Counted from the first letter of the stretch, positions 6,802-59,018 are shown. The stretch is DNA of 64,000 nucleotides from Candidatus Saccharimonadota bacterium (GCA_002726935.1 PBTC01000014.1:66218-130217); one strand, 5' to 3'. A program made the numbers and translations. Notes: generated by a model not told the origin, from the sequence alone.

Positions 6802-7638
6802 TTAGAGCCCTACCTTCGGGCAGTTGTGCTTTGAATTCGAGAGATGTTTCGGTTCGGTAGCCGTGTGCAAGGGCGGTAGATCTAAGTCATTGCTGTAACC
6901 TTTCTCATACCAAAGCGGCCTGTCGCATGAGATCAACCTTGTCGGATCAGGGCAAACAATGCGATGGGCTCTCAATATGTCTTTCCCTTCTTCTGCGTGG
7001 TGCCAAGGGCTCGTTAGTGTGATTGTTTCAAATCCGGCTTTGAGGGCCTTGCGCAGAACGGCCTCTCCTTCCCGGTCCCACCGGTCTTGTGTGATTGGCA
7101 GGCATCGGCCGTGGTCAACGTACATCAGGTCTTTTCTGCTGGCGGTGGTCGGGATGGATTCCAATGCGCAGAGTATGCCGATGTCATCGAGGTTGGCCCC
7201 GCCTTGGTATGCCTGGTACGGACTAAACCGGCTGATCTTTGATTCGTCCAGAGCACAGACCTCTGACAGGCCGTAGCGGTCATATGTCACTACCAGATCA
7301 TATCCAGCTTGCCTGATCTCCCCGCTTAGGATTTTTCCCGTCGCGCCACCGAATTGACGGCTCAGCTCGTCTTTCCAATTGGTATGCTCGATGAAGAGCG
7401 CTTTCTCGTACCTTACCGCGCCATAGTGGGTCTGTGGAGAGGAAAACCAAGGTCGCTTAAAATCGCGCTCGAGCATGTAGACACCCCAGGGTTCAATCTC
7501 CGTGCGGAACGCTATACGGGTGGTGTCGGTCAACCCCCGCCGCACGCCCGACACGTCACGCCTAAACATGAAATACCGATCGCCTTCAAATTCCATGAAT
7601 GCGGGGTCGGTAGATATTTTTCGTGGGAGCTGCTTCAT
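6802..7638 (-). CDS. Hypothetical protein, possibly a divergent ART-PolyVal-like domain
   Basis: GATGKILSGEIRQAGYDLVVT...SEV segment resembles the GyDgi..E.v C-terminal part of ART-PolyVal. Confidence 0.5.
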   Translation of the reverse strand: MKQLPRKISTDPAFMEFEGDRYFMFRRDVSGVRRGLTDTTRIAFRTEIEPWGVYMLERDFKRPWFSSPQTHYGAVRYEKALFIEHTNWKDELSRQFGGATGKILSGEIRQAGYDLVVTYDRYGLSEVCALDESKISRFSPYQAYQGGANLDDIGILCALESIPTTASRKDLMYVDHGRCLPITQDRWDREGEAVLRKALKAGFETITLTSPWHHAEEGKDILRAHRIVCPDPTRLISCDRPLWYEKGYSNDLDLPPLHTATEPKHLSNSKHNCPKVGL

Positions 7639-7644
7639 CTTTCC

Positions 7645-7971
7645 TTAGAAGCTGAGGCCTGAGCTTGGGCGTGGCTTAGGTTGCGGAGTCGGCTCAAGGC
7701 CCTTTTGGATGCAGAATTCAATGGCCTCGCGTGATGCGGTATCGTATTGGCCAATGTCAGGCATCCAACGGCTTAACGCTCTGAACCTCTGGAATGCGGT
7801 TTGCATGGCGTTTTCACCATCGATCACCACGCCGTTTCCGCGCAACTCCTTGATGTAGCCGATCGACTCGCGCAGGTATTCTTTCAGTTTCTCGTTCAGA
7901 TCCTGGAACCCATCTTCGCTTTCGTAAAGTTCAAAAGGGTTCTTCTCGGCCATTAGTTTTTCAAAGCTCAT
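7645..7971 (-). CDS. Hypothetical protein with Pro/Ser/Lys C-tail (PKPRPSSGLSF)
   Basis: ORF with GGAGAA SD. Confidence 0.65.
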   Translation of the reverse strand: MSFEKLMAEKNPFELYESEDGFQDLNEKLKEYLRESIGYIKELRGNGVVIDGENAMQTAFQRFRALSRWMPDIGQYDTASREAIEFCIQKGLEPTPQPKPRPSSGLSF

Positions 7972-7995
7972 GACTTCTCCTTGTGGTGGCGGCGA

Positions 7996-8625
7996 TCACA
8001 TTGAGGGGCCTTTGGATGCAGGCTTCAGTGCTGGTGGAAAAGGAAAAGATCCTGCTCTTAGCAGCTTGTTGAGACCCTCTGCCTGATCCTCTCTGAGGGC
8101 GCCCAGTCCCACCAGTGTCTCTATGCTGTAAGACAGCTCTTCGAGTTGATCTTCGTTGAGTCCTGGGTAGCTCTTTGAATCAGGCTCTTTTCCAGAAAGG
8201 TGCGCGTCGTCAAACTTCTCTTTTCTAAAGCCTTCAAGCAGATTGTTTTTTAGCGTTGGGGAGATCTCTTCATCCAGTGCGTCGATGAAATGAAAAGCAT
8301 TGTCCTGTTGAAGCTCAGCTTCATCCTCCTCGCCCCAGACCGTGACCTGCACCGTTTCATTGGGGTCAAAAGGCTCTTCCGTTATGAAATAACCCACAGA
8401 ATTCACCACATGGAACCCGGAGACGATGTAGCTGAGGCCATCTACCTCCAGCTCAGTCCACACTTTGTTGGGGTCGGCCTTGACCACTTCCCCAAACTCA
8501 GGCTGCTTCTTCCCTATGCGCGTAAAGACAACCCCATTTTCTTCCAGGTTCTCGTGTAACCCAGATTCAGAGCCAAAAGAGAACTCTTGGGGTTTGTATT
8601 TCTCGGCCCATTCATCGCGTTGCAT
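7996..8625 (-). CDS. Acidic hypothetical protein with C-tail KPASKGPSM
   Basis: ORF with SD; VWTELEVDG..IVSGFHVVNSVGYFITEEP domain. Confidence 0.7.
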   Translation of the reverse strand: MQRDEWAEKYKPQEFSFGSESGLHENLEENGVVFTRIGKKQPEFGEVVKADPNKVWTELEVDGLSYIVSGFHVVNSVGYFITEEPFDPNETVQVTVWGEEDEAELQQDNAFHFIDALDEEISPTLKNNLLEGFRKEKFDDAHLSGKEPDSKSYPGLNEDQLEELSYSIETLVGLGALREDQAEGLNKLLRAGSFPFPPALKPASKGPSM

Positions 8626-8767
8626 AGTGTTGTCCCTTTGATTTCAATTTCTCTAATTCTCTTTTTCATTGATTTTTAAGTCCAGACAAGCCGTATCGAG
8701 AAAAGCAGAGGGTTGCAAAGCACTGAGCGTTGGATTCTTCCCTGCTTGAATTGCTCGCTCTCTTGTG

Positions 8768-8786
8768 TCAATATATTGATATATCA
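8768..8786. promoter_or_regulatory. Overlapping palindromes TCAATATATTGA and TGATATATCA upstream of the hipB-like gene (candidate operator)
   Basis: Two perfect palindromes 20-38 nt upstream of ATG 8806; HipB-type antitoxins autorepress via palindromes. Confidence 0.45.
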
Positions 8787-8805
8787 GTATAAAAGAATTT
8801 GCAAA

Positions 8806-9186
8806 ATGAAAAATTTAGGCGCTTTCAAAACCCAACGAGAAGCCTTGATCGCATCAAAGGTCCTGAGAAATGAGCCGCCCCTTGTAATCGCGGCGACGAA
8901 CCTGAGGTATCACCGGCACATGAAGAAGCTCACCGTGCGAGAGGCAGCGGAGCTTTGCTCAATGGCGGTTGGGACCTACACGTCCTTGGAAAAAGGAAAC
9001 CCAGGTAGCGGCGCGGACAATCTTCTAAAGGCCCTAACTGTCATGGGTGTTGACCTGAAGAAAGCTTTTGTTGCCTTGGACATGCCCCAAGGTGGGGTAG
9101 TCACGGAAATTGTTAATGGTAAAGCGCGAAGAAGTTTTCCTGAGACTAATTCTGTATGGCTTAGGTCACGGGGGATGATGCCTTGA
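8806..9186 (+). CDS. XRE-family HTH antitoxin (HipB-like)
   Basis: LTVREAAELCSMAVGTYTSLEKGNPG HTH; overlaps hipA start. Confidence 0.8.
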   Translation: MKNLGAFKTQREALIASKVLRNEPPLVIAATNLRYHRHMKKLTVREAAELCSMAVGTYTSLEKGNPGSGADNLLKALTVMGVDLKKAFVALDMPQGGVVTEIVNGKARRSFPETNSVWLRSRGMMP

Positions 9187-10664
9187 GCGAAAAGGACCCC
9201 GTGTTAGAAAAAAACGAGCGCACAGTGGAGTTGTGGCTGGACGGTAAACACGTCGCAACAGTCGAGTTCCTGTTGGGCAAGGTCAGTCAGTGGTCTTACA
9301 CTGACGAATGGATAAAGAATGGTTTTGAGCTTTCCCCTGCCTTGGACTTTAATGCCGAAGTAAAAGCAAGCTCTGCGGAGGCGTATCTTGAGAATCTCTT
9401 TCCCGAAGGCGAGGTTTTTGATTCCTTGGTCGAGATCCTTGGCGTTTCCAAGGGCAACCATTTCTCAATCCTGAAGTCGCTTGGCAAAGAGACGTCGGGG
9501 TGCTTGATGTTTTTGTCGCCGGGAGAAGAGCCCGATCTGATTGAGCCGTCCATCAGGATTATCGGGGCCGATGAATTCGAGAGGCGTGTAGCTAAATCAG
9601 ACGACCTTCCCGTGACGTCTTGGGACGGTCGCGTTCGTCTTTCCGTTGCTGGTCTTCAAAGAAAAATCAATGTTGTGTATGCGCAGCAAGGTGAGATCAT
9701 CGGGCTCCCAGAGGGATCTTACAGTTCAACTCACATCATTAAGTTTGAAAAGAACAATCAAGAAAACCTTGTTCTGAATGAAAAGTTAATGCTTGAGACT
9801 GCGCGACGACTTGCAATTCCCGTATGCAATACGGAAATACTCTCAATTGCAGATAGGCGTCTGCTTTTGGTTGAAAGGTTTGATCGCTCGGTTAGCGAGG
9901 AAAACAAGGTCACTGTTAAAACTAAGATGCCAATCGCTGGGGTAAAACCGGAGGAAGAGCTGCACGTACTGGAATCCAACTATTCGCATGGGGTGATGGA
10001 CTTGCCTTCGGTTAAGAGGGTTCACATTATCGACGGTTGCCAAGCTCTAGGCCTTAGGTCTGAATTGAAGTACGAACGTCACCTCGGCGATGGGGCTGAA
10101 GTGCGTCACAGTCGTCTTGGTGTCTCCTTTGAGGACCTTGGTGCCCTCTGCGCTTTGTGTGTTGACCCTAAAGCGGTACGAATCTCTATTCTAAGGTGGG
10201 GGATTTTTAACCTGGCGGTGGGAAACTTTGATGCTCACGGTAAGAACATATCCTTTACTTTGTCGGAAAAGGGACTCGATCTAGCACCTTTCTACGATTT
10301 GGTGAGCATTGAATCTTTGGGCGGAAAGTTCAAGGATACTTTTGCTATGGGTTACGGGGATAACTTTGGCGAAACACCATTCGAATGGGGTGATCTATGT
10401 AAGTTTGCGTTGGATCTCCGGGTCGAAGAAAGTGATCTGATAAGCAATGCACTAGATATCTTAACGTCCCTTCCTGGGGCTCTTAAGATGTCTTTGTCAT
10501 CGCTGCCCCCAACAACCGACAAAGAAAACACCTTCATCACGAAGCTGAGGCATGTGTGCGAAAGCAGATCAGCATACCTGGCCGGCGTCATACAGAAGGA
10601 AATCAACGGAAGCCTAAACATGCTTAGCGCTCAGCATACCGATCCAGGGAATTCATTTAATTGA
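9183..10664 (+). CDS. hipA: HipA-family Ser/Thr kinase toxin with N-terminal HipA-N module
   Basis: LSVAGLQRK P-loop, THIIKF, LLVERFDR, GNFDAHGKNISF, LAPFYDL. Confidence 0.9.
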   Translation: MSEKDPVLEKNERTVELWLDGKHVATVEFLLGKVSQWSYTDEWIKNGFELSPALDFNAEVKASSAEAYLENLFPEGEVFDSLVEILGVSKGNHFSILKSLGKETSGCLMFLSPGEEPDLIEPSIRIIGADEFERRVAKSDDLPVTSWDGRVRLSVAGLQRKINVVYAQQGEIIGLPEGSYSSTHIIKFEKNNQENLVLNEKLMLETARRLAIPVCNTEILSIADRRLLLVERFDRSVSEENKVTVKTKMPIAGVKPEEELHVLESNYSHGVMDLPSVKRVHIIDGCQALGLRSELKYERHLGDGAEVRHSRLGVSFEDLGALCALCVDPKAVRISILRWGIFNLAVGNFDAHGKNISFTLSEKGLDLAPFYDLVSIESLGGKFKDTFAMGYGDNFGETPFEWGDLCKFALDLRVEESDLISNALDILTSLPGALKMSLSSLPPTTDKENTFITKLRHVCESRSAYLAGVIQKEINGSLNMLSAQHTDPGNSFN

Positions 10665-10689
10665 CCTTTTGTCGTATATAGTGTATTAT
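10661..10689 (+). promoter_or_regulatory. Sigma70-like promoter TTGACC-17-TATTAT for thyA
   Basis: Consensus-like hexamers, followed by AGGAGG SD. Confidence 0.65.
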
Positions 10690-10712
10690 TTGATAATACT
10701 CTAGGAGGTCAT

Positions 10713-11564
10713 ATGCAACACCAATACGAAGCACTCTGCCAGCGAATCCTCGATAAAGGCGTGATGGTCGCCAACGAGCGAACGGGTGTGGGCTGCTTGA
10801 CCGTGGTTAATGCCGATTTTGAATACCACGTTGGCTTTGGGGAGTTCCCCTTGGTGACGACCCGCAAGGCTCCATATAAGGCGGCCATTGCGGAGCTCTT
10901 GGGCTACCTTCGTGGTTATAGTGACGCGCAACAATTCGCGGACATCGGCTCGCCAACTTGGTTTGCAAACGCCAACGAAAACAAAGCGTGGCTTGCCAAT
11001 CCTCACCGTAAGGGCGAGAACGACATGGGTCGGGTCTATGGCGTTCAGGGGCGATCCTGGGCAAAGCCGGATGGATCCACGATCGATCAGCTCGTGAAGG
11101 TCTATGCCAATTTGAAAGCAGGTAAAGACGATCGCGGTGAAATCATCACGTTCTGGAACCCGGGCGAGTTCGATCAAGGCTGCTTGCGCCCCTGTCTTCA
11201 TTCCTACCAATTCTCAGTGCTGGATGGCACTTTGTACTTGAACGCAACTCAGCGATCCATTGATGTGCCGCTTGGTTTGGTTTTCAACATGGTCCAGGTG
11301 TACACCTTCCTTGCGCTGATGGCCCAGATCACCGGTTTGAAGCCCGGGGTTGCCTATCACAAGCTGGTTAATTGCCACATCTACGAGAATCAGATTGAGC
11401 TGATGAAAGAGCAGCTAACGCGCGAGCCGTTTGAGAGCCCGCGTCTGCTCGTCAATCCCGAGATCAAGTCCCTTGATGACGTGCTGACCTGGGTGTCCAA
11501 AGATGACTTCACGGTTGCGGGCTATGAACATCATCCGGCCATTTCCTACCCGTTTTCTGTGTGA
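10713..11564 (+). CDS. thyA: Thymidylate synthase
   Basis: [31 protein letters not shown] catalytic Cys, [19 protein letters not shown]. Confidence 0.96.
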
Positions 11565-11571
11565 GGTTTTT

Positions 11572-12168
11572 ATGCAGCCTAGTAAGCGAGATTTAGCTGC
11601 CATCGGGATCATTTTTGCAGCAATTGTTTTTGCGGGGATTGGGGTCTATTCTATTGAGCAGGTAGAGAAAGGCCGAGGTATTGCCAAAGCTGTCCTCGAA
11701 AGCATTCCTGAAGACCAGAGTTCTCTTAAGGTGCTTGCAGAGAAGCTCGTTGAGTATGACCGCGATGCCCTGGAGAAGATCAATCTTGAGAGCGGCGAGG
11801 ATCCTTGGTTGTCCCACGCAAAAGGGTACCACCCGGAACGCTTTGTCGTGCCTGCGGAGTGGTTCGCTTTAGTGGCCCAATCTAAGGAGATTCCAGATGG
11901 TCAGGTAAAAAGACTGCTGGAAAAGGTGGGTGAAGAGCCCCTATCGACTACAGGTGCGGCCTATTGGGTACTAGAAGTTTCTCAAGCGTTAAGGGTGGCC
12001 GGTGCTTATGAAGAGCAAAAACGCGGCATAAACGCTTTGTGTGGTGCTGATCAGTCTGCGGGATTGAGAAGTGGGAGTGCGACCAAAGAGCAAGAACGCG
12101 GCGTTGACGTTTTGTGTGTTGATTCCGAGATTGCGCATGAGAAAGATGCTGCGGGGCAACCGCTTTAA
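11572..12168 (+). CDS. Membrane-anchored 'PELF' family protein, copy 1 (C-terminal domain split off by a frameshift)
   Basis: N-terminal TM; HPERFVVPAEWFALVAQSKEIP...LSTTGAAYWVLEV. Confidence 0.7.
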   Translation: MQPSKRDLAAIGIIFAAIVFAGIGVYSIEQVEKGRGIAKAVLESIPEDQSSLKVLAEKLVEYDRDALEKINLESGEDPWLSHAKGYHPERFVVPAEWFALVAQSKEIPDGQVKRLLEKVGEEPLSTTGAAYWVLEVSQALRVAGAYEEQKRGINALCGADQSAGLRSGSATKEQERGVDVLCVDSEIAHEKDAAGQPL

Positions 12169-12335
12169 TGTCTCTTGCATCGATGTTCGGCGCACTTAAG
12201 TCAACCGCCATCTCGCCTGTTTCGTCTGCCTTTGAAGCTCGCGTTGCCGGAGTGCGTTGTGATAATGAGCTTGCAAACAGTGTTCTGCCGGATTCCTGGC
12301 GGTGGGTCGTCACTAAATTGGATTGCAAGGAGTAA
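12168..12335 (+). CDS. 55-aa ORF equal to the detached C-terminal two-Cys domain of the PELF family (missed by the ORF track)
   Basis: MSLASMFGALK...FEARVAGVRCDNELANSVLPDSWRWVVTKLDCKE aligns with the C-term of 13171-13854; TAATG stop/start overlap. Confidence 0.7.
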   Translation: MSLASMFGALKSTAISPVSSAFEARVAGVRCDNELANSVLPDSWRWVVTKLDCKE

Positions 12336-12342
12336 TGCCGTA

Positions 12343-12567
12343 ATGCCATCTCGATACGAGTCCGGACCAAAGTCTTTTGTGCTGCAGATGATGGCCAAGT
12401 GCGCTATACGCGATCGACAGGCCTTGATCGATGCGTATCGCGCGGAGTTTGGCACTCCGGACGAAAAGGCGTCTCAGGTTATTTGCGAGGCAGAACGCTT
12501 GATCAAAGACTTCAAGCGAATCGCCCGGGGCGGACTCGCCCAGCCAAACAAAAGCTTAGAGATTTAA
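12343..12567 (+). CDS. Small hypothetical protein
   Basis: In-frame ATG after GGAG SD within ORF 12175-12567. Confidence 0.5.
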   Translation: MPSRYESGPKSFVLQMMAKCAIRDRQALIDAYRAEFGTPDEKASQVICEAERLIKDFKRIARGGLAQPNKSLEI

Positions 12568-12600
12568 ATCGATGACCTTGTCTACCATGAGAGATCGTAT

Positions 12601-13107
12601 ATGAGCAAAACAGATTCCCAAGAGTTTCCCCTAGAGTTCCTCGTGGCTTTCGCGTTGATCTTTATTGTTCTTATTGCTGCGGTGGCGTCTATTCTTGCTG
12701 ATGATGTTGAGAATGTTAAAGGGGGCTATGCACAAACCGTGGCTGAGCAACTACCAGAGAGTGAGCCGTCCCTCAAGGCTTTAGCGCTTAGCCTTGCTCA
12801 GCACAACAGGGATACACATCAAGAGTTAACAAACTCCTCTGGAAAGAACGAGCCTCTTTCGTGGTACCTGGCAAGCCAACCGGAACTATTCGCTGTGCCC
12901 AATGAATGGTTTTCTTTGCTTGCAAAAAGCGAAGGAATTCCTCCTGAAAAGTTAGCCGAACTCATTGGCGATGCTGGGAGGGGGCCAATTTTTACAACAG
13001 AGGCCGCCCAGTGGGTGCTGGAGGTCTATGAATACAAAAGGTCGCGTGCTGCTCTAGAGGCTCAGAAGCCTGCGTTGCAGGCGCTGCGGGACTCAATCAA
13101 ACAATAG
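12601..13107 (+). CDS. PELF family membrane protein, copy 2
   Basis: TM helix + QPELFAVPNEWFSLLAKSEGIP...TTEAAQWVLEV. Confidence 0.75.
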   Translation: MSKTDSQEFPLEFLVAFALIFIVLIAAVASILADDVENVKGGYAQTVAEQLPESEPSLKALALSLAQHNRDTHQELTNSSGKNEPLSWYLASQPELFAVPNEWFSLLAKSEGIPPEKLAELIGDAGRGPIFTTEAAQWVLEVYEYKRSRAALEAQKPALQALRDSIKQ

Positions 13108-13170
13108 TTCGTTGCCGTACCCTATTGTGGGCGGATACCGAGTAAAGTTTTTTAAGCGGAGAAACTTGAT

Positions 13171-13854
13171 ATGCCATTTCAATCTCTAGCAGCCCGTATG
13201 GGTATCTTCACCGTATTTGCTGTAGGCGCCATTCTTTATTTGGCTTTTGCTAACCCATTTATTAAGGGGGGTCATGCACAAACAGTTGAAGGAATGATTC
13301 CTCATGAGCATGCATCACTACGAGGCCTGGCAAAGGACCTCGCTGTTCATAATGAAAAGGTGCACAAGGCATTGAAATCAGATGCTGGCTCAATCAGAAG
13401 CCTGGGTTGGTTCATGTCGCGTTACCCGGAAAAATTCAACGCGCCTGCCGACTGGTTTGAGAAGGTGGCGCAAACCAAAGAAATTCCCACATCAAAAATC
13501 GAAGCACTCTTGGAGATAGCAGGGACGGGGCCTGTATCTACAAATGAGGCGGCTGACTGGTTGCTAGAAGTCTATATGCACCTAGAAAGAGAGAGTTCTG
13601 CAGAAAACCAGCAGATCGGTGTCAATGCCTTGCGTGGACCTGATAAGTCCCCGATTAAAGAAGATGCGGCACGGCAAGTAGCGGAAAAGGCCGTTGCGTT
13701 AATGTTCATCGACCTCAAACTTACCTCCATGACGCCAGAAACCGCTTCCTTCGAGGCGGTGGTCGCTGGGAAAAAGTGTGATATCGATCTCGCTAACAAT
13801 GTTTCCCCAGAACCTAATCGATGGTTGGTTACAAAATTGAATTGCGAGAGCTGA
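13171..13854 (+). CDS. PELF family membrane protein, copy 3 (full length, with two-Cys C-domain)
   Basis: TM helix + YPEKFNAPADWFEKVAQTKEIP...STNEAADWLLEV. Confidence 0.75.
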   Translation: MPFQSLAARMGIFTVFAVGAILYLAFANPFIKGGHAQTVEGMIPHEHASLRGLAKDLAVHNEKVHKALKSDAGSIRSLGWFMSRYPEKFNAPADWFEKVAQTKEIPTSKIEALLEIAGTGPVSTNEAADWLLEVYMHLERESSAENQQIGVNALRGPDKSPIKEDAARQVAEKAVALMFIDLKLTSMTPETASFEAVVAGKKCDIDLANNVSPEPNRWLVTKLNCES

Positions 13855-19227: not shown

Positions 19228-19503
19228 TTGCATATGGTGATCATTGAATTCCTAACTGTTTGTGTCGCGTTATTCATCGTGGTGCGGGCCGTTAGAAATA
19301 CGTTTAATTCGCAAGTTGTGGTGCAGGGGCATCCTTTTTTTGGCGTGGTCTTGGGTGTGTGGGCGATACTTCTTTGGCCGGTGACGTTGTGGTTAATTGA
19401 CATTCGGGCAGTTTGGTTTTTTGCTCTGTTGATGGTTTCAAGCGTTGGTCATTTGTGTGTTACGGTGGATGTGTACAGAGGTACACGTACCTTGCGACCA
19501 TAG
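19228..19503 (+). CDS. Small membrane protein
   Basis: Three hydrophobic segments. Confidence 0.55.
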   Translation: MHMVIIEFLTVCVALFIVVRAVRNTFNSQVVVQGHPFFGVVLGVWAILLWPVTLWLIDIRAVWFFALLMVSSVGHLCVTVDVYRGTRTLRP

Positions 19504-19535
19504 ATAACGATGTCGAATCATCATGGAGAGCGAGT

Positions 19536-46221: not shown

Positions 46222-46307
46222 TTAAATCCCTTTGTAGACAAAATATTTTTATTGTTATAGGATACACGAAATAAATTTACTGTAAACATTTTATTAAGAG
46301 ACACACA

Positions 46308-48057: not shown

Positions 48058-48134
48058 CCCCAAATCCAAGCGCAGGGCACCGGTAGCTCCGGTGTCACAC
48101 GAAACCATACAGACAGAAACACAAGGAGAACACC

Positions 48135-49313
48135 ATGATTGTAGAAGGCATTATTCGCACCAAAACCAAAATCCACGTCACCAGTGCGATTGACTCAAGT
48201 ACAAAAATTAACGCAGACGGCCAGATTGGCACCGAGGACGCTCGCATTCCATTGGCCCGTACCTATCGCACGGTGGCCTTCACCCCAGGCGGAGGACGAG
48301 TTGAGGTGCCTTTTGTTCCTGGTAACTCGATTGTCGGCCGGATGCGTCGAGCGGCGGCAACAATGATTGCGAAATCCTTGCGGGCTCGAGAACAGCAGAT
48401 CACCCGCACGACGTACCGCGGCATCAGTTGTGGCGCTGCCGATCCCAAGCCGGAGATGAATGGCCTGCAGGTTGACGAGTTCGAGCGCTATCTGAAAGAT
48501 CCGCATATTGGGTTGTTTGGCGGTGGCAAGCGTCTGTATGAAGGTGGTTTCAAGATGTTTGACTTGCTACCGGTGACCATGGCCACCATCGAAGCCGGCA
48601 TGGTGCCAGCGGAGTACGCCGAGCACATGGCGATGCTGTCCGCTGGCGAAGATGGCCGTCCAGCGATTCGGGTGACCGGCATTGATGTCCTCCACCGCCG
48701 CGACGATCTTCTGGACGGCGCCAGCGAGGAAGTGGTCTCCACAATTTCCGATTACGAGGGTCTCTTTGGCGACATGAAGCAAGAAGCAGCTCGCAAGGTG
48801 CAGGCCGCGGCAAAGCGCGCAGGCGTAAAGCTGGGCGAGGAAGAAAAGGCAGCAGACCGAGTTTCCATGAGCCAGCAATCGGCTCGGGAGTACATCGTCC
48901 CAGGGGTTGCCATGCACTTTAAGGCGGCGCTGAAAAAGCGTGTGACCAAAGAACAACTGGGTATCTGGGTCTTGAGCCTTCAGGAGGTATTCAACACAAA
49001 CGAGTTTGGCGGCGTGTCCCACCTTGGTTACGGCGAACTGAATCTGGCGGATGCGGCCGTAAACTTGGTGCTTCATGGTGCCGAAAAGTCTGCTCCCCTA
49101 TTCTCTTTGGTTCGCGAAGGCGGTCGCGATCAGTTGATCATTTCCCACCCAGAGGCCAAAGAGGCCGCGAAAGCTGCTTCCGAATGGATCTCTGGCGTTA
49201 CAAATGAGAGCTTTGAGTCCTTTTATGTCGCATCCGCTCCACCTGCTGCCGAAGGTGCCAAGGCGGCCAGGGGCAAGAAGTCTGCCGAAGGCGAGGAAGA
49301 GGTAGCAGCATGA
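48135..49313 (+). CDS. csf2: Type IV backbone Csf2 (Cas7)
   Basis: VPFVPGNSIVGRMRR, IGLFGGG, FGGVSHLGYG. Confidence 0.9.
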   Translation: MIVEGIIRTKTKIHVTSAIDSSTKINADGQIGTEDARIPLARTYRTVAFTPGGGRVEVPFVPGNSIVGRMRRAAATMIAKSLRAREQQITRTTYRGISCGAADPKPEMNGLQVDEFERYLKDPHIGLFGGGKRLYEGGFKMFDLLPVTMATIEAGMVPAEYAEHMAMLSAGEDGRPAIRVTGIDVLHRRDDLLDGASEEVVSTISDYEGLFGDMKQEAARKVQAAAKRAGVKLGEEEKAADRVSMSQQSAREYIVPGVAMHFKAALKKRVTKEQLGIWVLSLQEVFNTNEFGGVSHLGYGELNLADAAVNLVLHGAEKSAPLFSLVREGGRDQLIISHPEAKEAAKAASEWISGVTNESFESFYVASAPPAAEGAKAARGKKSAEGEEEVAA

Positions 49314-50020
49314 GTCACGCGCCGAGGCATGAACCATTCCGCGTCGATTTCATGATGTGCGCGCCGGTGCAAATGGACTACCTGCCCACGCATCTGGATG
49401 GGCTCTTGTCCTGGGCGTTCCTTCAGGAGCGTCTTGCGCTTTTTGCCTCGGGTGCCGTTGATCATGCGCCCGACCCAACGGACCTGGAGTCCGACATCTA
49501 CACCGCTCTTCCCCTGGACAAAGAAGATGACACCTTTTGCGCTAGCGTTATCTTGCCTCAAGAGGTGTTGGGTTCCTCCACGCGCTTTTACACTCGTTCA
49601 TCCGACGCCAATGCGCTGGCAAGTATCTCGATCGATGACGCGCACACAGGCAAAGGGGTTATTCTTAACCAGTCACGCATGCGTCAGATTCAAACTGCTC
49701 GAGGCCAGTTGAAAACTTGCTTGAACACTGAGCAGGTCATGCACTCCCCTGTCTTTACGGCCTACGGGATTGGCGAGATCGACAGAGTTCGAGAGCTTCT
49801 GTGTACCCATGTCTTTGGTTTGGGCAAAAACAGAGCCAAAGGATTTGGCTCACTTAGATCCATCGAGGTGAGCCCTGACGAGGATGCGAAAGAATATTGG
49901 AAGCTACGCGCAATGAGGGACAAGGAGGACGGCTATATCCCCATGGTAACTCCTCTTCGTCCTCCATATTGGAATAAGGCGGCCGCACGCATCGCGTACA
50001 TGCCCAAAGACGTTCTCTAA
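49310..50020 (+). CDS. csf3: Type IV Csf3 (Cas5)
   Basis: PTHLDGLLSWA, GLGKNRAKGFG, RPPYW. Confidence 0.88.
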   Translation: MSHAPRHEPFRVDFMMCAPVQMDYLPTHLDGLLSWAFLQERLALFASGAVDHAPDPTDLESDIYTALPLDKEDDTFCASVILPQEVLGSSTRFYTRSSDANALASISIDDAHTGKGVILNQSRMRQIQTARGQLKTCLNTEQVMHSPVFTAYGIGEIDRVRELLCTHVFGLGKNRAKGFGSLRSIEVSPDEDAKEYWKLRAMRDKEDGYIPMVTPLRPPYWNKAAARIAYMPKDVL

Positions 50021-50061
50021 GAACCATCAGCTCTTTAAAAACATAATCTTATTTTTGATCA
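50021..50061 (+). promoter_or_regulatory. Short AT-rich CRISPR leader (41 nt)
   Basis: AT-rich gap between the csf3 stop and repeat 1. Confidence 0.5.
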
Positions 50062-52110
50062 GTTGCATAGCTCTGCTTATTTTCAGGGCATGAAAGATTG
50101 TGAAAAAAATCAGGCGCGTCAGGCATGTTTCATTGCCCTCCTCATTGTCAGGGCATGAAAGTTCACGAAGCAGAGCAAGTCCTTCTTCAGGTTGAATAGC
50201 CCTGCTCATTGTAAGGGCATATAAGTCAGCATCTTGCTGATGATCACCTCCCGCTGTTGCAAGGCCCTGCTTATTGTCAGGGAATGAAAGTGTCCTACAT
50301 CAGCAAACTTACTAATCTCAGTTGCAAGGCCCTGCTCATTGTCAGGGCATGAAAGTTTCCACATTACAGCCGACAGTGTTGGTGGGTTGCATGGCCCTGC
50401 TCATTGTCAGGGCATGAAAGACACACCGTAGCTCAACCACAAATTCTTGTGTTGCATGGCCCTGCTTATTGTCAGGGCATGTAAGTTAGCCGCGTCCTTA
50501 TCTTCGTTGTACGAAGTTGCATAGCCCTGCTTATTGTCAGGGCGTGAAAGGCCTTTTCGCTGGCTAGTGTAGTGTTCTTTGTTACAACGCCCTGCTATTT
50601 TTCAGGGCATGAAAGAATCATTGCGCTATTTGAAAAAGGTGCCTAGTTGCATGGCCCCGTCCTTTGTCGGGGCATGAAAGTTGGCGATCTGCGGATAGTT
50701 GAATTCGCTCGTTGCATGGCCCAGCTTATTGTCAGGGCATGAAAGGGACTTGCCCACGGTTGAGATTTCAGTATTGTTGTATGGCCCTGCTCATTGCCAG
50801 GGCATGAAAGTAGTCAGGTGATTGCATTCATCAGTGCTATGTCGCATGGCCCTGCTCATTGTCAGGGCATGAAAATAGTGACATCCAGTCCATGAGGGAA
50901 TCGTTGTTGCACAGCCCTGCTCATTTGTAGGGCATAAAAGGATCAGCACCCATGTAGGTCGCTCCTGTGCGTTAGATTGCCCTGCTCATTGTCAGGGCAT
51001 GAAAGTATTTCCTGCAATTCATACATAGGTGTGCCGTTGAATAGCCCTGTTCAGTGTCAGGGCATGAAAGAAGGTGTCGAATTAAAAGCTGAAAAAAATG
51101 CGTTGCATGGCCCTGCTCGTTTTTAGGGCATGAAAGTAGAAATCCCATCGAATTGATTTCTCGATCGGCTGTATAGCCCTGCTGGTTACCAGGGCATGAA
51201 AGTAACATGAAGGCTAGAGTGCATGTCCAATGGCTGTATAGCCCTGCTGGTTACCAGGGCATGAAAGTATTTCCTGCAAGTCATACATAGGTGTGCCGTT
51301 GAAGATTCCTGCCTATTGTCAGGGCATGAAAGAAGGTCTTTGTCTTTGAGAAACAAAAGCTGATTGCACTGCCCTGCTCATTGTCAGGGCGTGAAAGTAA
51401 GACGATGACTGTTTTCTTCATTTTGATGGTTGCATGGCCCTGCCGATTGTCAGGGCATTGAAGCAAGTGACCCATGGCTTGTGCTCGTGGTGCGTTGTGT
51501 TGCCCTGCGCATTGCAGGGCATGTAAGACTTTGCTCGCAACTTGTCGCTGAGATAAAGCTGGATTGCCCTGTCTATCGTCAGGGCATGAAAGTCACTGAA
51601 GACTCGCTGCAAGACGAAATAAGTTGCATTTCCCTGCTCTTCGTCAGGGAATGTAAGTGTAGACCATCTGGCTAATTGCGTTTTCTGGTTGCATTGCTCT
51701 GCTCATTGTCAGGGTATGAAAACTGAGTGCCAGATCTTTTTTTTACGTTGCTGTCTTATCGCCCCTTTTTGTAGGGGCATGAAAGTGTTGTGACCCTTGG
51801 AGTCGATCTTTGGGGTTAAATGGCCCTGCTCATTGTCAGGGCATGAAAGAAGCTCCGCAGAATTCACATAGAGTTGAGAGTTGCCTGGCCCTGCTCGTCG
51901 TCTGGGCATGTAAGAATTTGCTCGCAACTTGTCGCTGAGATCAATTTGGATTGCCCTGTTTATCGTCAGGGCATGAACGAGCGGTGCGTGAATCCTTGGG
52001 AAGTGCGCGGTTGTATAGCCCTGTTCGTTGACAGGGTATGGAAGCTAAAACACCCCTATTCTCGGCAACCCCGAGTTTGCATTGCCCTGTTTATTGTCAG
52101 GGCGTGAAAT
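50062..52110 (+). CRISPR. CRISPR array: 32 degenerate repeats (consensus GTTGCATGGCCCTGCTCATTGTCAGGGCATGAAAG, 35 nt) and 31 spacers of 29-31 nt
   Basis: Regular ~65-nt period; GCCCTG/CAGGGC stem plus ATGAAAG 3' handle. Confidence 0.97.
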
Positions 52111-52182: not shown

Positions 52183-52893
52183 TCACCACAAGGGAGGGGC
52201 ACCGAGTGACACCTGCGCGCGCTTTCCAAGCGAAGCCTCAGAAATATTTAAAGAAGGCTCAAGGCGCAACAAGGCCTCTTTGATGGTCGTGTGGTCAGCC
52301 ATAAGGTGGTCAACCGAGGCGCCAGGCTTGATCTCACATAAAGATTTCCAGTTGGCGGTGGTAAGGTCGTGTTGTGAAATCCCGGACGCCAGCGGAAGGC
52401 CGCCGGCTTCATTGACAACCAGAAGCGTTCTTTGCCTGTTCTCATCCACCGTGAATTCAGTGCGTCGACCAAGCCGGTTGATGAACCAGTACGATTTACC
52501 ATCCTCTAGCTTCCACGGGTTGATCCGGTCATGGGGCCTTTGTGCAATCCAGACGCCTACGCCTGGATGAATAACTGGTACCGGAGGAACTCGTATCCCT
52601 GTGCGCTGCTCGAACTCCCCTATCGCATTCTCCAGCAACGTCCACTGGCTTGTATCCACTACGTCGCCCGTCCGGTGTACACGACACCGCCAATCTTCCC
52701 CAGGCTCCTTGTTCTCAACGGTGAAGCGCTCATAGTCCCCAGATCCGTCTTTCTTGCTTTGAATCACCCCGATTAACACCGCGCAATCCGGCGTGCCGTC
52801 CTCAATGTCCACATGGTCGGCCATCAGCACCTGCCCCCGGTTCTCATGCAGATCTTTGTAGGTCACCTTGGTCTGAACTTTGATAGGCATCAC
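52183..52893 (-). CDS. Hypothetical protein, tandem paralog A
   Basis: KVTYKDLH...INPWKLEDG..Y..INR.GRR.EF shared with 52914-53630. Confidence 0.7.
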   Translation of the reverse strand: MMPIKVQTKVTYKDLHENRGQVLMADHVDIEDGTPDCAVLIGVIQSKKDGSGDYERFTVENKEPGEDWRCRVHRTGDVVDTSQWTLLENAIGEFEQRTGIRVPPVPVIHPGVGVWIAQRPHDRINPWKLEDGKSYWFINRLGRRTEFTVDENRQRTLLVVNEAGGLPLASGISQHDLTTANWKSLCEIKPGASVDHLMADHTTIKEALLRLEPSLNISEASLGKRAQVSLGAPPLW

Positions 52894-52913: not shown

Positions 52914-53630
52914 CTAAAATGAGGGCGACGAAGACTTTGCTGCAGTCGTAGGAAGGCTCAAGCTATCAAGCGTCGTTGAAAACTCAGGATTAAGCGACAT
53001 TAACGCATTTTTGATCTCTTGTGGTCCCACAAGAAGCCTCTCCTCAGCAGGGCTCGCTCCAAGAACTCGGATGGTTCTCCAATCCTCGGCGCCCAGGTAG
53101 GCCGCTGGTACCCTCGGTCCTTCCTCCGTGTCTAACCAAATGCCACCGCCCTCCCCTAGTCTCGCTAAGAATTCCTTGCGCTTTCCGTAGCGGTTGATAC
53201 TTGCGTATCTCTGGCCATCTTCTAGCTTCCATGGATTAATAGTCTTGGTAGAGTTTCTAGCCTCCCAAATCCCTACGCCTGGGCTTATTACTGGGATTTG
53301 TGGAAGCACAACCCCGGTGGCTTTCTCAAAGGCCGTGATTGCATTAGGAAGCGTCATGGGCTGGTGCCTTTGGGGCGCGATCTTGGCCCATTCGTCCACG
53401 AAAACCCAATATTGGCCGCCTTCATGGAAGTCAATCAAAAAGTAGTCATGGCCATCTTCGCGAATCCTGTTTTCAATCTTCAAGCCGGCCACGATGCTGC
53501 CCGTGGGCCGCCCGCTTTCTATCCAAACGCCATTGGCTACTAAGGCCTCTCCCGGATGTGCGTGAAGGTCAGAGAAAGTGATCTTCGGCTTCCTGGTGAT
53601 TGGAATGATGTGCTCTTTTGTTGCTGTCAT
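52914..53630 (-). CDS. Hypothetical protein, tandem paralog B; C-tail AAKSSSPSF
   Basis: KITFSDLH...INPWKLEDG..Y..INR.GKRKEF. Confidence 0.7.
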   Translation of the reverse strand: MTATKEHIIPITRKPKITFSDLHAHPGEALVANGVWIESGRPTGSIVAGLKIENRIREDGHDYFLIDFHEGGQYWVFVDEWAKIAPQRHQPMTLPNAITAFEKATGVVLPQIPVISPGVGIWEARNSTKTINPWKLEDGQRYASINRYGKRKEFLARLGEGGGIWLDTEEGPRVPAAYLGAEDWRTIRVLGASPAEERLLVGPQEIKNALMSLNPEFSTTLDSLSLPTTAAKSSSPSF

Positions 53631-54208: not shown

Positions 54209-55102
54209 TCACATCGAAAATTTGCTCCCTGGGGGACTTCCTGGTTTCATGGCTGCATTTGCTTTTTCAATCACCGTAGACAACGACGAACCCAGATACC
54301 CCCAGAAATCCGGATTCTGGATTGTCTCAACCGAAACCCTTGTAGGCAGAAATCTTGCCATCTCGGACTCGAAATCAGCTCTAGTTTCGTCGGCATTTAG
54401 GACCTGATCTTTGTGTTTCTCTATCAATCCAAGGAATTCGTTTTGGTCTTTCCCCCTCATTTCCAGCTTCTGGGTGATGTGCGCTCGGGAGGCTTCAGCA
54501 CGCTGACGTGTTAACCAAACGATATCCCACAAATCACGAGGTTTGATTCTTCGCTCACGATAGGCAAAGGCAATCAGTTTGTCTGCCATGATTTCATTAA
54601 GACTTTGCACGGGCACAAGAACGCCAGAGACCTGAGAGCCAATGCCGTAATGGTCTTCGAGCGGCCTGTTTAGGACGCTAAGTGAGTCATATGCACAGAC
54701 ATCGATGTGCAAACGTTGCGAAGGAAGATCTTTTCTGTAAGAATCCCGCGTAATGGTCACTCTCCAGCTCGCAGTATCCCCTCTCATTTCAGTTGGTGAT
54801 CCTACTGAAACCGGCAACCCATATTTCGTCTCAAGGCATTCTTTAAGGTGAGCATCGAGACCATCAAAAGATTTTGGATTGAAGTTCACTCCAGCAGTGA
54901 AATCTAGGTCTTCGGACAATCGATTGGAGCCGTAACACATCCTGAGCGATGTGCCTCCAATGAATGTGATCTGGCTTAATACTCCCGCATTCTTTAGAGC
55001 CTGCATCAAATCGTGATGCAAGACCTCCTTTTCTACGGCAGCCTCCAAACCCACGTACTCGGGGTGCCGGCTAATTACATCCTTGACTATCTCATTAAGC
55101 AT
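54209..55102 (-). CDS. AbiEii-family nucleotidyltransferase toxin; C-tail KPGSPPGSKFSM
   Basis: EKEVLHHDL, FIGGTSLRMCYGSNRLSEDLDF, KPRDLWD. Confidence 0.88.
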   Translation of the reverse strand: MLNEIVKDVISRHPEYVGLEAAVEKEVLHHDLMQALKNAGVLSQITFIGGTSLRMCYGSNRLSEDLDFTAGVNFNPKSFDGLDAHLKECLETKYGLPVSVGSPTEMRGDTASWRVTITRDSYRKDLPSQRLHIDVCAYDSLSVLNRPLEDHYGIGSQVSGVLVPVQSLNEIMADKLIAFAYRERRIKPRDLWDIVWLTRQRAEASRAHITQKLEMRGKDQNEFLGLIEKHKDQVLNADETRADFESEMARFLPTRVSVETIQNPDFWGYLGSSLSTVIEKANAAMKPGSPPGSKFSM

Positions 55103-55706: not shown

Positions 55707-56201
55707 TTATTCCGCCAGGCAAGGGTTGTTTGGATCGAATGCTCCGTTGTTGGCGGTGGCTGACTTGATTTGGGTTGGGAAGAAGGCGACGACTTCCGTG
55801 ATGTTTCCGGTCTCATCTTTCGCAATGAGCCCATCGAATCCCTTTAGCTCTAGGTCGGCTTTGTCAGCAAAGGAGAGGTACTCAATTTCATCTTGACCAA
55901 CGTATTTTGGGTTTTTTACGGCAAGATAGCAGTCGAGCACATTGGCCCCATACTGCTTGGCCAGGGCCGCATTCGGCGTGAAGTAAAAGCCGGCGTCATC
56001 GCCTCCCGATCTCCAGGCTTTGTCTTGGTCGAAGGCCGAAAACTGGGCGTCAGTGCCGTGGTACACAATGAGGGGCTGACCGGATTGGCAAAGAACTTTG
56101 CTGCCTTCAAACCATTTTTTAAATGGCTTAGTTTCTAACTTGCCAGCAGTAGGCATCATAGATGCTGGCAAGGGTGTGCGTTTGTTGACATTGAAATCCA
56201 T
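55707..56201 (-). CDS. Stand-alone ART-PolyVal-type ADP-ribosyltransferase
   Basis: GQPLIVYHGT..FSAFD, GFYFT..A..A.QYG, YLAVKNP, GFDGLI, EVVAFFPTQIKSATANNGAFDPNNP. Confidence 0.85.
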   Translation of the reverse strand: MDFNVNKRTPLPASMMPTAGKLETKPFKKWFEGSKVLCQSGQPLIVYHGTDAQFSAFDQDKAWRSGGDDAGFYFTPNAALAKQYGANVLDCYLAVKNPKYVGQDEIEYLSFADKADLELKGFDGLIAKDETGNITEVVAFFPTQIKSATANNGAFDPNNPCLAE

Positions 56202-57263: not shown

Positions 57264-57358
57264 AAGGTTTCCTTTAGGGTCCCGGTGATTTGATTTAATA
57301 ATAGCACAGATATATTGCAAATACAATTTAATTCGTGTATTATTGAAATCAAAAACGC

Positions 57359-57988
57359 CTAAAAAAACGAGTTCCCCGGCTGTTGTCTCTTCGGCGCTCT
57401 ATCAGCTTCTTTGCTGGTGTCTGGTGCATGGATGCCGGGTACCCCGATGCCATGTTTCTTGGCCGTGGCCAATAGGGCTTTTGCGTTCAGGATGGCATCC
57501 TCTAGAGGATCATGCGGCAGATCTGCGCCTCTTAGCTTCTTCCACTCACTGGTCACCAAGAAATCGCGCTCGAGACCTGCGCAGAAATCCCCTATCCTTC
57601 GGGCTGTGAACCCAAAAGGATTCTCGCCGGCGAACTTCCATGTGTAGTAGTTAATCCATTGCCAGTCATAGGCAGGATTGTCGGACATCAATACCGCTCG
57701 ACCGCTGGTGTTTTGTTTGACCCACTGCACGAAGCTTCTCATCACCGTGCGGGGGTCCTCGTAACCCTCGTGCATTTGTCTTGTAGTGTGAGACTTCTGC
57801 AGGCTTTCAGGAATGAAATTTGGAGAGATTGGCCTGGTGAATCCCTTGAATGTTTTGTCAAGGTCATCACTTAGGACAACGGCTCCAAAGCTCACCATTG
57901 AGAAATCTGGAGCGTATGGGCCGTCGCCTTCCGTGTCGACTATGAAAAAAGTCTTTTCCTCCTGAGAACTTTTCTCGATGCGATTCAT
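57359..57988 (-). CDS. DEDDh 3'-5' exonuclease; C-tail KRQQPGNSFF
   Basis: VDTEGDGP (ExoI), SDNPAYDW (ExoII), LPHDPLEDA (ExoIII). Confidence 0.85.
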   Translation of the reverse strand: MNRIEKSSQEEKTFFIVDTEGDGPYAPDFSMVSFGAVVLSDDLDKTFKGFTRPISPNFIPESLQKSHTTRQMHEGYEDPRTVMRSFVQWVKQNTSGRAVLMSDNPAYDWQWINYYTWKFAGENPFGFTARRIGDFCAGLERDFLVTSEWKKLRGADLPHDPLEDAILNAKALLATAKKHGIGVPGIHAPDTSKEADRAPKRQQPGNSFF

Positions 57989-58007
57989 CTTTTTTTGCGG
58001 CGTTGAA

Positions 58008-58667
58008 TCACGCTTCGCGCGATTGAGTTTCTGGCTCATCCAGTATCTCAGCCGCCGACTCGATTGCGATACGCGCTTTCTGCGTAAGCTCTGCCATGGA
58101 CTCTTCAAACCCCTCGAGCTCAGGCATGTTGTCGTGTCGTCCCAAGGTTAAATAGGGGGTCAAGGCGTTGGTCACTTCAAAAGTCAGAGATCGCTGAAAC
58201 ACAATCTTTGTCTGAGCGTCGAGATTATCCAGCTCTTCAAACCAAGTCGCTTGGTTCTCTTTTGCGATCGTCGCGACCTCTGCTCTGAGGTCTTCCCAGG
58301 TTTGCGAATTCAACCCGGACTGGAGGTAGGCGGCGTCGGCTTCTAAGAAGATGGCCAGGTATCTCGATTTCACGTATACCAGTCTCTCCTCTGTGAGCCC
58401 TTCATAGATCTTGTCAGCGAGGTGGCTTGTTTTGCTTTCATCGGCGAACATGGATTTTTGCTTGTCCATTTGCAACGCAAGCTGCTGTGCATTGTAGATT
58501 TTGTCCTGTACGGGTGAGTAAGCACCCAACTCGGTGCGGAAAAACTCAACGCGCGCTTTCACCTCTTTCAACGAGGTGTTGGTCAGATACCAAAAGGTGC
58601 CCAGCAAAACAAGGGCGGTGAGTGCCAACATATGGCTGATTTTGAAAACTAGTGTGCTTTTTTTCAT
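58008..58667 (-). CDS. Membrane-anchored helical protein, paralog of 56259-56927
   Basis: N-term TM; ELGAYSPVQD, VKSRYLAIFL, VTN, KARIAIESA. Confidence 0.7.
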   Translation of the reverse strand: MKKSTLVFKISHMLALTALVLLGTFWYLTNTSLKEVKARVEFFRTELGAYSPVQDKIYNAQQLALQMDKQKSMFADESKTSHLADKIYEGLTEERLVYVKSRYLAIFLEADAAYLQSGLNSQTWEDLRAEVATIAKENQATWFEELDNLDAQTKIVFQRSLTFEVTNALTPYLTLGRHDNMPELEGFEESMAELTQKARIAIESAAEILDEPETQSREA

Positions 58668-58691
58668 TTCAGAGGTCCTTTTGGAGGGTGA

Positions 58692-59018
58692 CTACATTGT
58701 TGGGCCGGAGGGCTTTTTTACAGCAGCGGATACGGGTTTCCATGGCTCCATCTCAGCCGCTTCCAAAGCGCTTTGTACACCTTGAAGTTGCTCGATTGAC
58801 TTGGCTACTCGCCTTATGGTCTCTTCCATGGTGTCGCAGTCTTCACTGGTTGCCAGTTCATTTACCAAGAACTCAAATAGGCCGTCTCCAACCTCTTTGT
58901 GTTCGCCATAGGCGATGCCTTTGAAGTCACCGCCTCCATATGTTTCAAGAAGAACGCGTTGTGCCTGGTTAAATTCTTCGGGCGCTGCAGATTTATTTCC
59001 CATTTTTTTACCTGACAA
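58692..59018 (-). CDS. Hypothetical protein; C-tail KKPSGPTM
   Basis: LLETYGGGDF...VGDGLFEFLVNEL. Confidence 0.65.
   Translation of the reverse strand: MSGKKMGNKSAAPEEFNQAQRVLLETYGGGDFKGIAYGEHKEVGDGLFEFLVNELATSEDCDTMEETIRRVAKSIEQLQGVQSALEAAEMEPWKPVSAAVKKPSGPTM

Follow-up and report, generated by a model that had tools for sequence, protein, structure and literature searches.

Tail-bearing proteins of the window

The DNA analysed here, a stretch of 64,000 nucleotides that is referred to below as the window, spans positions 66218-130217 of contig C14 in a 45-contig bin of 1.34 Mb (G000). A number of genes in the window encode otherwise unrelated proteins that share a short peptide at their very C-terminus, the tail that is the subject of this study. 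An earlier reading of the window (the sequence-only reading) had listed seven strict examples, and all seven tails were found directly before the stop codons given for them. They belong to a 209-aa orphan protein (7996-8625, minus strand; ...LKPASKGPSM), a protein of at most 252 aa with an uncertain start (19413-20171, plus strand; ...HKTKSSSPGF), a 182-aa protein (20271-20819, plus strand; ...AIKKPTSSSPGL, previously given as KKPTSSSPGL), a 128-aa CbtA-like protein (28016-28402, minus strand; ...PRSKSSSPSF; Pfam CbtA_toxin, E 1.8e-6), a 139-aa orphan (39300-39719, plus strand; ...AMKAKPPSF), a 238-aa orphan (52914-53630, minus strand; ...TAAKSSSPSF) and a 108-aa orphan (58692-59018, minus strand; ...AVKKPSGPTM). 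Pfam gave no match for the proteins at 19413-20171, 39300-39719 and 58692-59018. Genes were called with our own crude caller, which relies on open reading frames (ORFs) and codon usage; the C-termini depend only on the choice of ORF.

The sequence-only reading had also proposed seven looser variants, of which one fits. This eighth tail ends a 108-aa orphan without a Pfam match (7645-7971, minus strand; ...KPRPSSGLSF), in which Leu takes position -3; it scores 15.9 with the position-specific scoring matrix (PSSM) and passes the broad rule, both of which are described below. The other six were not confirmed. The ends KFSM (54209, minus strand), NSFF (57359, minus strand) and NLAM (31443, minus strand) are at best weak variants of the form Phi-x-Phi, where Phi is a hydrophobic residue, and those at 9183 (plus strand), 6802 (minus strand) and 42051 (plus strand) do not fit the tail. 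The first of these genes (54209-55102) encodes an AbiEii nucleotidyltransferase (Pfam AbiEii, E 1.3e-31) that ends ...PGSKFSM and fails both scoring rules, and the second (57359-58108) a weakly exonuclease-like protein that ends ...QQPGNSFF. Among the domains that had been assigned to the carriers, the CbtA-like domain is thus found on a firm tail, the AbiEii and exonuclease-like domains have weak tails only, the HipA-like protein at 9183 has none, and the GNAT and ART-like domains found no match among the carriers of the window. Two further ends come close to the tail. A doubtful ORF with a low coding score (3237-3635, minus strand; ...QRKRDPGM) has a PSSM score of 10.4 and fails the broad rule because of Asp at -4, and a 327-aa gene of which the 5' part lies in the window (63876-64000, plus strand) ends ...KTAPPSFM, which is a tail plus one residue. 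A paralogue of the latter, C42_17324, ends ...VIKGPGI.

In the AlphaFold model of the protein at 7996-8625, the N-terminal half of which is poorly modelled, the last helix stops at residue 191 and residues 192-209 form a coil of falling or low confidence. Orthologues of this protein with 51-85% identity retain K[GS]PSM, while the linker that precedes it is wholly changed. Likewise, the eight full-length variants of the protein at 52914-53630 with at least 90% identity retain [SAF]SSPSF; a tail-less paralogue of this protein adjoins it at 52183-52893 (minus strand). Within the CbtA-like family, five 50%-identity clusters other than that of the window protein end in GPSF, GPSL, GPGV, GPKF or RPRF, SPGL also occurs on a member of the family, and most other CbtA-like homologues have no tail (among the best 43 of 97 inspected). 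Carriers from elsewhere in the bin gave a similar picture: C14_20292 (RKPSSMSL) has an orthologue ending RKPSAPGL on relative L029, C37_15873 (KKTSTMSM) has orthologues ending AAKGPSI on L007 and KTGMGM on L029, and C36_12600 (TSSMSI) has one ending GSSLKF in a Burkholderiales metagenome-assembled genome (MAG) from a pond (G001). Hence, diverged orthologues (36-85% identity) keep the tail class and exchange its residues. On an unrelated 8-kb contig with a G+C content (GC) of 55% (L026), about half of the genes end in GPKL, APRM, KMGL (twice) or GPKF. Because of these orthologue and L026 tails, Pro, Met and Leu are regarded as interchangeable at -3, with the last residue staying hydrophobic.

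Enrichment and composition of the tail

Of the 167 genes on C14, 17 end in P[SGT][FMLI], whereas 0.38 would be expected from the frequency of this motif inside proteins (P 7e-23). The motif is pinned to the C-terminus: 17 cases lie at offset 0, and each of the other offsets in the last 30 residues has 0-3. An iterated PSSM retrieved 46 tails, all but four of them on contigs with a GC of about 48%. Since the PSSM is trained on the tails that it then scores, and the procedure is therefore circular, the test was repeated with a fixed broad rule, namely [PML][SGTKRN][FMLIV] directly before the stop, a small residue at -4 and Lys or Arg upstream. On the eight contigs of about 48% GC, 53 of the 538 genes (9.9%) obey this rule against 1.9 expected (P 1.5e-57), compared to 3 of 786 against 2.3 expected on the other contigs (Fisher odds ratio 28.5, P 2.6e-18). 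The tail is real and lies far beyond chance. The sequence-only reading had proposed a comparison between the complete replicon and the host chromosome; contigs of the replicon class do stand far above background, and this background is supplied by unrelated contigs of the bin, which look like another small-genome organism and not like the true host chromosome, so that they serve as a background control only. C14 is the richest contig, with 22 tails.

The tails follow the consensus [KR]-x(0-5)-[SG]-[P/M/L]-[SG(K)]-[M/L/F/I]-COOH. In the 53 tails that obey the fixed rule, position -1 is Met (18), Leu (12), Phe (12), Ile (7) or Val (4), position -2 is predominantly Ser (30), Gly (13) or Lys (6), position -3 is Pro (32), Met (11) or Leu (10), and position -4 is mainly Ser (21) or Gly (20); at -5 to -10, Lys, Ser, Ala, Pro and Arg prevail. 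Near-variants either have one extra residue (APPSFM, SAPSFF, SMGMG) or have Pro at -4 in the form P-x-x-Phi (PSVF, PSRF, PHSL). The residues Ser, Gly, Pro, Thr and Ala make up 51% of positions -12 to -4 in tails and 33% in neighbouring proteins without a tail (P 1e-10). Over the C-terminal approximately 20 residues, the net charge is +1.6 in tails as compared to +0.4 in controls (P 2e-5). Acidic residues are fewer in tails than in controls (1.45 as compared to 2.05). The bodies of the carriers are more acidic than those of neighbouring proteins.

The sequence-only reading held that the similarity lies in the protein and not in a DNA repeat, and that the carriers are unrelated to one another. 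Both points were upheld. The tails use the full set of four Pro and six Ser codons and end at all three kinds of stop codon, and the 45 nt downstream of the stop codon show a pairwise identity of 25%, which equals that of random sequence. This codon diversity and the unrelated downstream DNA rule out a DNA repeat or mini-element as the source of the last codons. Paralogy is ruled out by the fact that the 46 best tails represent 45 BLAST families. With 45 unrelated families and free use of synonymous codons, selection acts on the peptide. Some known functions of C-terminal peptides were also considered and rejected. Sortase, PEP-CTERM and PGF-CTERM sorting signals need a transmembrane helix downstream of the motif, and the motif of the tail is the very end of the protein. 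Neither the clamp-binding motif (QL[SD]LF) nor mimicry of the tip of SSB, the protein that binds single-stranded DNA, agrees with the motif and charge of the tail. A capsid-packaging signal was rejected as no HK97 capsid match was obtained, a weak test that involved one hidden Markov model only.

About 40 carriers were scanned against Pfam, and approximately three quarters gave no match, which makes 'toxin arsenal' an overstatement. Those with matches include Fic, ART-PolyVal, CbtA-like, dUTPase_2-like and AAA ATPase proteins, with weak matches to integrase and DprA-like domains. The carriers are soluble: a transmembrane-like segment was found in 1 of 42 carriers as compared to 19% of the other genes on the same contigs. 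The tail is absent from T4SS (type IV secretion system), flagellar, CRISPR, Wadjet, topoisomerase and polymerase proteins of the element. Primase is a classic transferred protein of IncI plasmids, and it had been suggested that the primase be inspected for the tail; the DnaG-like primase ends ...VANSPSRF, which is a near-variant and not a strict tail.

The presumed mobile element and its secretion machine

The eight contigs on which the tails concentrate (C14, C19, C26, C36, C37, C41, C42 and C43) have a GC of 47-49% and together amount to about 570 kb, with 143 kb for C14 and 146 kb for C19. Their tRNA genes occur in arrays only (21 genes on C42 and 3 on C41) and none is scattered; both array contigs bear tail proteins as well. 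On the contigs of about 52% GC, by contrast, tRNA genes are scattered and the T4SS has a Gram-positive look or that of the candidate phyla radiation (CPR), with VirB6-like, VirB4-like and M23 peptidase genes on C5 and a VirD4-like gene on C3. A search of the bin for 16S gave no match. We treat the bin as chimeric, and take the eight contigs to be fragments of a single type of giant mobile element, which ended up in one bin with a small genome unrelated to it. Metagenomes from TARA Oceans, JGI and ENA contain proteins identical to those of the window, on contigs that reach 304 kb; the samples include TARA SAMEA2623155, JGI 3300005809 and ENA ERZ27286504. TrbC, TraU and a window protein were found in the same samples. 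A 20-kb relative (L007) carries orthologues of C14, C19, C37, C42 and C43 genes intermingled with one another, which is why these contigs are assigned to one element type. C14 and the contigs with secretion genes would belong to one replicon, which is not closed in this assembly. The element looks like a giant, uncultured, conjugative element of Gram-negative type from aquatic bacteria.

Using NCBIfam models and BLAST searches against an annotated MPF_I plasmid, we located a T4BSS (secretion system of type IVB) on three of the eight contigs. TrbC/DotL, TraQ, PilN, PilQ and PilR are encoded on C26, TraJ/DotB, TrbA/DotM, TraU/DotO, a DUF87 ATPase and TraY/DotA on C19, and DotH and DotI on C36. 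TrbC/DotL matches NF041447 with an E-value of 1e-127 and 427 bits, the cut-off of this model being 800 bits. By its gene content, the machine is an I-type, Dot/Icm-like T4BSS with a PilN/Q/R thin pilus. As regards a type IVA machine, only the weak VirB4-like and VirD4-like matches on C5 and C3 were obtained, and these look as if they come from a different organism. All three T4BSS contigs carry tails. Thus, the earlier proposal that the tails serve T4SS export is supported in part, as a T4BSS is present on sister contigs with tails and none is present on C14. In G001, a genome of 4 Mb that encodes TrbC at 65-66% identity, a 38-kb contig (C153) holds TrbC together with three tail genes, which encode an exonuclease (...PSGPGGF), a 458-aa protein (...PDMSGF) and the GSSLKF orthologue mentioned above; the two genes that follow TrbC end LFNMKF and GFDNNF. 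The TrbC protein of the element is extended at its C-terminus by about 170 acidic residues, which TrbC of a Stutzerimonas MPF_I plasmid lacks. As a separate observation, TrbC itself (C26, 3430-5910) ends ...VQGSSGFAS and its G001 homologue on C153 ends ...NSKKSGFIA, in both cases a tail-like S-G-F followed by two residues.

The element contigs furthermore encode ParC/ParE-like topoisomerase genes (C36), the DnaG-like primase, a family-A-like polymerase (C19) and flagellar genes. The topoisomerase, primase, polymerase and tRNA array form a gene set that is unusually autonomous for a plasmid. The flagellar-like genes, which were assigned by reading the sequences and not by family searches, are FlhA-like (75884-77986), FliF-like (134727-136577) and flagellin-like (109019-111583) on C19 and FlgE-like (58618-59991) on C26, and they share these contigs with T4BSS genes. 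The presence of flagellar and T4BSS genes argues for a plasmid or an integrative and conjugative element and not for capsid packaging.

Genes for conflict between bacteria are also present. In the window, a type IV-A CRISPR locus (43504-52110) encodes Csf2 and a DinG-type helicase; the latter has 905 aa with Helicase_C_2/ResIII domains, and the 392-aa protein at 48135-49313 is about 26% identical to annotated Csf2 of large plasmids. Outside the window, C14 carries a Wadjet-like JetA/B/C/D set (6224-13341) that is conserved in the diverged relative L018. Wadjet is an anti-plasmid defence system. In another relative, L022 (Logan SRR23865819), Cas9-Cas1-Cas2 (2490-7189) takes the position where L018 has Wadjet, so defence cargo is swapped at this position. 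At least five HipA-like kinase genes are found on the element, one in the window (9183-10664, plus strand), three elsewhere on C14 (23997-25325, 30534-31859 and 140923-142446) and one on C26 (54803-56131); the gene at C14 23997 adjoins a Fic gene, and this pair is kept in L029. A paralogous family of 15 members with the C-terminal pattern ...IKSAxxNxGxFDPxNPxIxK is represented in the window (55707-56201, minus strand), at 2002-3818 and 35777-36649 on C14, at 231-3139 and 20599-24395 on C19, and on C37. Relatives of this family on L018, L022 and L029 match Pfam ART-PolyVal. A single member with a Pfam ART-PolyVal match, C41_2498, has a basic tail as well.

Candidate function of the tail and comparison with known systems

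We lean, by a modest degree, towards the view that the tail serves the I-type/Dot-Icm-like T4BSS that the element itself encodes, as a translocation (docking) signal specific to this lineage. This view is based on the fit of the tail to the published core of the Dot/Icm signal (without its E-block) and to the basic signals of conjugative systems, and on its occurrence on soluble conflict-type or orphan proteins of an element that encodes a T4BSS. In such a scheme, a short unstructured extension would follow the last folded element of many unrelated soluble proteins. It would consist of one to three Lys or Arg residues in a spacer rich in Ser, Gly and Pro, followed by small-[Pro/Met/Leu]-[Ser/Gly/Lys]-[Met/Leu/Phe/Ile]-COOH. 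Because the motif sits exactly at the C-terminus, a pocket of the reader probably takes up both the terminal hydrophobic side chain and the free carboxylate, while an acidic surface of the reader would attract the basic spacer. The likeliest reader would be the coupling complex TrbC(DotL)/TrbA(DotM), and one may speculate that the acidic C-terminal extension of TrbC is the part involved. Together with the DNA or before it, proteins that bear the tail would pass into recipient or rival bacteria. The cargo would include Fic, ART-PolyVal, CbtA-like, dUTPase-like and recombinase-like proteins and many orphans, and the delivered proteins would act in establishment, anti-defence or killing. The data show the motif with its enrichment and conservation, the soluble nature of the carriers, and a T4BSS that is present and in part physically linked to tails; from these we infer reading of the tail by the T4BSS, the subunit concerned and the function of the cargo. 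In its strictest form, the proposal would make the tail a portable 'zip code' (basic spacer plus small-[P/M/L]-x-Phi-COOH) that a family of giant conjugative elements of aquatic origin employs and that the extended acidic C-terminal domain of TrbC/DotL reads at the free end, with at least 50 separate proteins injected per element, among them toxins, anti-defence enzymes, a recombinase and the primase. We consider this stricter version somewhat less likely than not.

Several observations weigh against a translocation signal. The tail is lost in some elements that bear a T4BSS: the orthologue of the 20271-20819 protein on L020, a contig of the Burkholderiales MAG, ends ...ATKKPVK, two of the seven orthologues of the 7996-8625 protein end NGPQP (as on L020), the Fic protein of L029 has no tail, and the same is true of P0002, a 56% orthologue of the protein at 52914-53630. 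The 15 ART-PolyVal paralogues, which are obvious candidates for delivery, are mostly without a tail. C14 has no T4SS gene though it is richest in tails, in a chimeric bin with a replicon that is not closed. No relaxase could be compared for a tail, as PF03432 gave no match, and the IcmS-type adaptor PF12608 had no match in the bin at E <= 0.1. The tails also have no Glu-rich E-block at about -10 to -17, and since both E-block and IcmS-type adaptor are lacking, the element does not copy the Legionella mode of recognition. The Stutzerimonas MPF_I plasmid NZ_CP071900.1, the TrbC of which is 39% identical, has 0 tails among 82 proteins, which excludes the tail as a general trait of MPF_I plasmids. 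Finally, co-occurrence of T4BSS and tails is not recognition, and export itself is a prediction from sequence.

Other explanations of the tail have to be weighed against these data. The tail could dock to another shared partner inside the donor cell, such as a chaperone, a scaffold, a PDZ/TPR-like binder or an AAA+ unfoldase, encoded by the element or by the host. The strictly C-terminal motif of the type Phi-x-Phi-COOH is in keeping with this, as PDZ-like pockets read hydrophobic-x-hydrophobic-COOH ends, and so are the lack of T4SS genes on C14 and the tail-less orthologues in T4BSS-bearing elements; moreover, most genes of the element are uncharacterised, so that a reader could hide among them. 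No candidate reader was identified, however, and the tails are confined to the class of contigs of the T4BSS-bearing element and adjoin T4BSS genes in G001, with a basic composition rich in small residues that matches known T4SS signals. We regard an intracellular partner as rather unlikely, though it is the strongest of the rivals. A C-terminal degron for ClpXP, ClpAP, Lon or a tail-specific protease, which would limit self-harm or time the activity of the carriers, seems improbable to us. Known degrons of bacteria are short C-terminal peptides that lack structure and end in hydrophobic residues, and several carriers (Fic, CbtA-like, ART) are potentially toxic. Yet the K..S-P-S-F consensus differs from the ssrA (LAA) and MuA (RRKKAI) classes, 43 of the 53 tails having Ser or Gly at -2, and the interchange of Pro and Met at -3 is not a known degron rule. 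In toxin-antitoxin pairs the antitoxin is usually the unstable partner, whereas it is the toxin-like partners that bear the tail here, and rapid turnover of about 10% of the proteins of the element would be hard to explain.

Even less probable is a T4BSS effector signal directed at eukaryotes, protist hosts for instance, in the manner of Legionella and Coxiella. Dot/Icm effectors do include proteins with Fic, HipA-like kinase and ART domains, and the type IV coupling protein of the element is about as near to DotL of Micavibrio-like genomes (36-40% identity) as to plasmid homologues (37-41%). It has two conserved heptapeptide stretches in common with this DotL; the Micavibrio DotL locus L031 has no cargo-like neighbour genes that could be compared for tails. 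Against eukaryotic targets stand the IncI-type thin pilus proteins PilN/Q/R in a system where IcmS was not found, the abundance of inter-bacterial conflict genes (type IV-A CRISPR, Wadjet, toxin-antitoxin, ART-PolyVal), and the absence of ankyrin or other eukaryote-like domains among the approximately 40 carriers tested. As for chance, compositional bias or an artefact of annotation, the crude gene caller and the self-trained PSSM would be possible sources of error, but a plain regular expression, judged against the frequency of the motif inside proteins, yields P 1.5e-57 with control contigs at expectation, and independent assemblies of other samples preserve the tail, so that we give this explanation next to no weight.

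C-terminal type IV secretion signals are known but fuzzy, and their cargo is hard to predict. To our knowledge, no consensus signal has been defined for I-type (IncI/T4BSS) conjugation systems. The tail is sharp enough for cargo to be listed by eye, and if it is a T4BSS signal, the list comprises 53 proteins or more from no fewer than 45 families, the majority without a known function. In the 'zip code' version, a linear consensus signal would be defined for the first time for I-type/T4BSS conjugation machines, and the predicted protein cargo would be by far the largest of any conjugative system. A T4BSS signal would also make clear predictions for mutagenesis of the terminal residue, of Pro/Met at -3 and of the free carboxylate. 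It would allow transferred proteins to be predicted by rule throughout a clade of mobile elements from the environment, furnish a list of candidate effectors for anti-defence and for use between bacteria, and supply a compact tag for engineered delivery of proteins between bacteria. Should the tail serve another partner, it would still represent a new multi-client C-terminal tag system.

Among the closest known systems is the signal of Legionella and Coxiella Dot/Icm effectors (RalF-type; Nagai 2005, Kubori 2008, Burstein 2009), which belongs to the same secretion family, with DotL/M/O/B/A/H/I homologues in the element. This signal has a hydrophobic residue or Pro at -3/-4 (PMC2701608, citing Nagai 2005) and a C-terminus rich in tiny and polar residues, with an E-block in some effectors (PMC2701608, PMC3052360). 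The tail fits this core, with Pro or a hydrophobic residue at -3 (or -4) and tiny polar residues (Ser/Gly/Thr-rich) at the extreme C-terminus, and it resembles the Dot/Icm signal also in being unstructured and in occurring on many unrelated carriers. The two differ in that the Dot/Icm signal is a statistical tendency and is experimentally proven, whereas the tail is a near-consensus peptide and a candidate signal recognised from sequence. In addition, the tail is net basic and lacks an E-block, an IcmS-type adaptor was not found, the machine has the appearance of a conjugative system of I-type and possesses a thin pilus, and the cargo looks aimed at bacteria. A T4BSS is able to kill bacteria (PMC9519443). 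The conjugative systems of F, pKM101 (N) and RP4 (P) translocate dozens of proteins by means of positively charged and/or hydrophobic C-termini (PMC11288057).

Substrates of VirB/VirD4 and conjugative systems (Agrobacterium VirE2/VirF/VirD5 and the 'conjutome' of F/pED208, pKM101 and RP4) share with the tail proteins a net positive, unstructured C-terminal tail; they travel with or beside DNA, and plasmid-encoded establishment proteins are typical cargo. Unlike the tail, the signals of these type IVA or F systems are Arg-rich or follow loose patterns of charge and hydrophobicity, without fixed last three residues. We know of no set of tails of comparable size or stereotypy in VirB/VirD4-type systems. 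Class II PDZ ligands (Phi-x-Phi-COOH) and the SSB tip (...DDDIPF-COOH) are likewise strictly C-terminal with a hydrophobic last residue, which is preceded at a distance of two to three positions by Pro or another hydrophobic residue, and a single short peptide brings many unrelated proteins to a common partner. The Phi/P-x-Phi-COOH pattern of class II PDZ ligands is present in the tails, and no PDZ reader turned up, none having been searched for. The SSB tip differs from the tail in being acidic and in belonging to one protein that recruits many; the tail is basic and belongs to many proteins. Finally, delivery of effectors, those of ART type among them, alongside DNA has been proposed for conjugative elements (PMC5512222), and the polyvalent proteins (Iyer et al. 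2017, PMC5512222), for which delivery with the invading DNA was proposed, resemble the cargo considered here in their ART-PolyVal, Fic-type, nuclease and DNA-processing domains. In polyvalent proteins these activities are fused in one giant polypeptide (PMC5512222), whereas the element encodes separate small proteins, each with its own tail.

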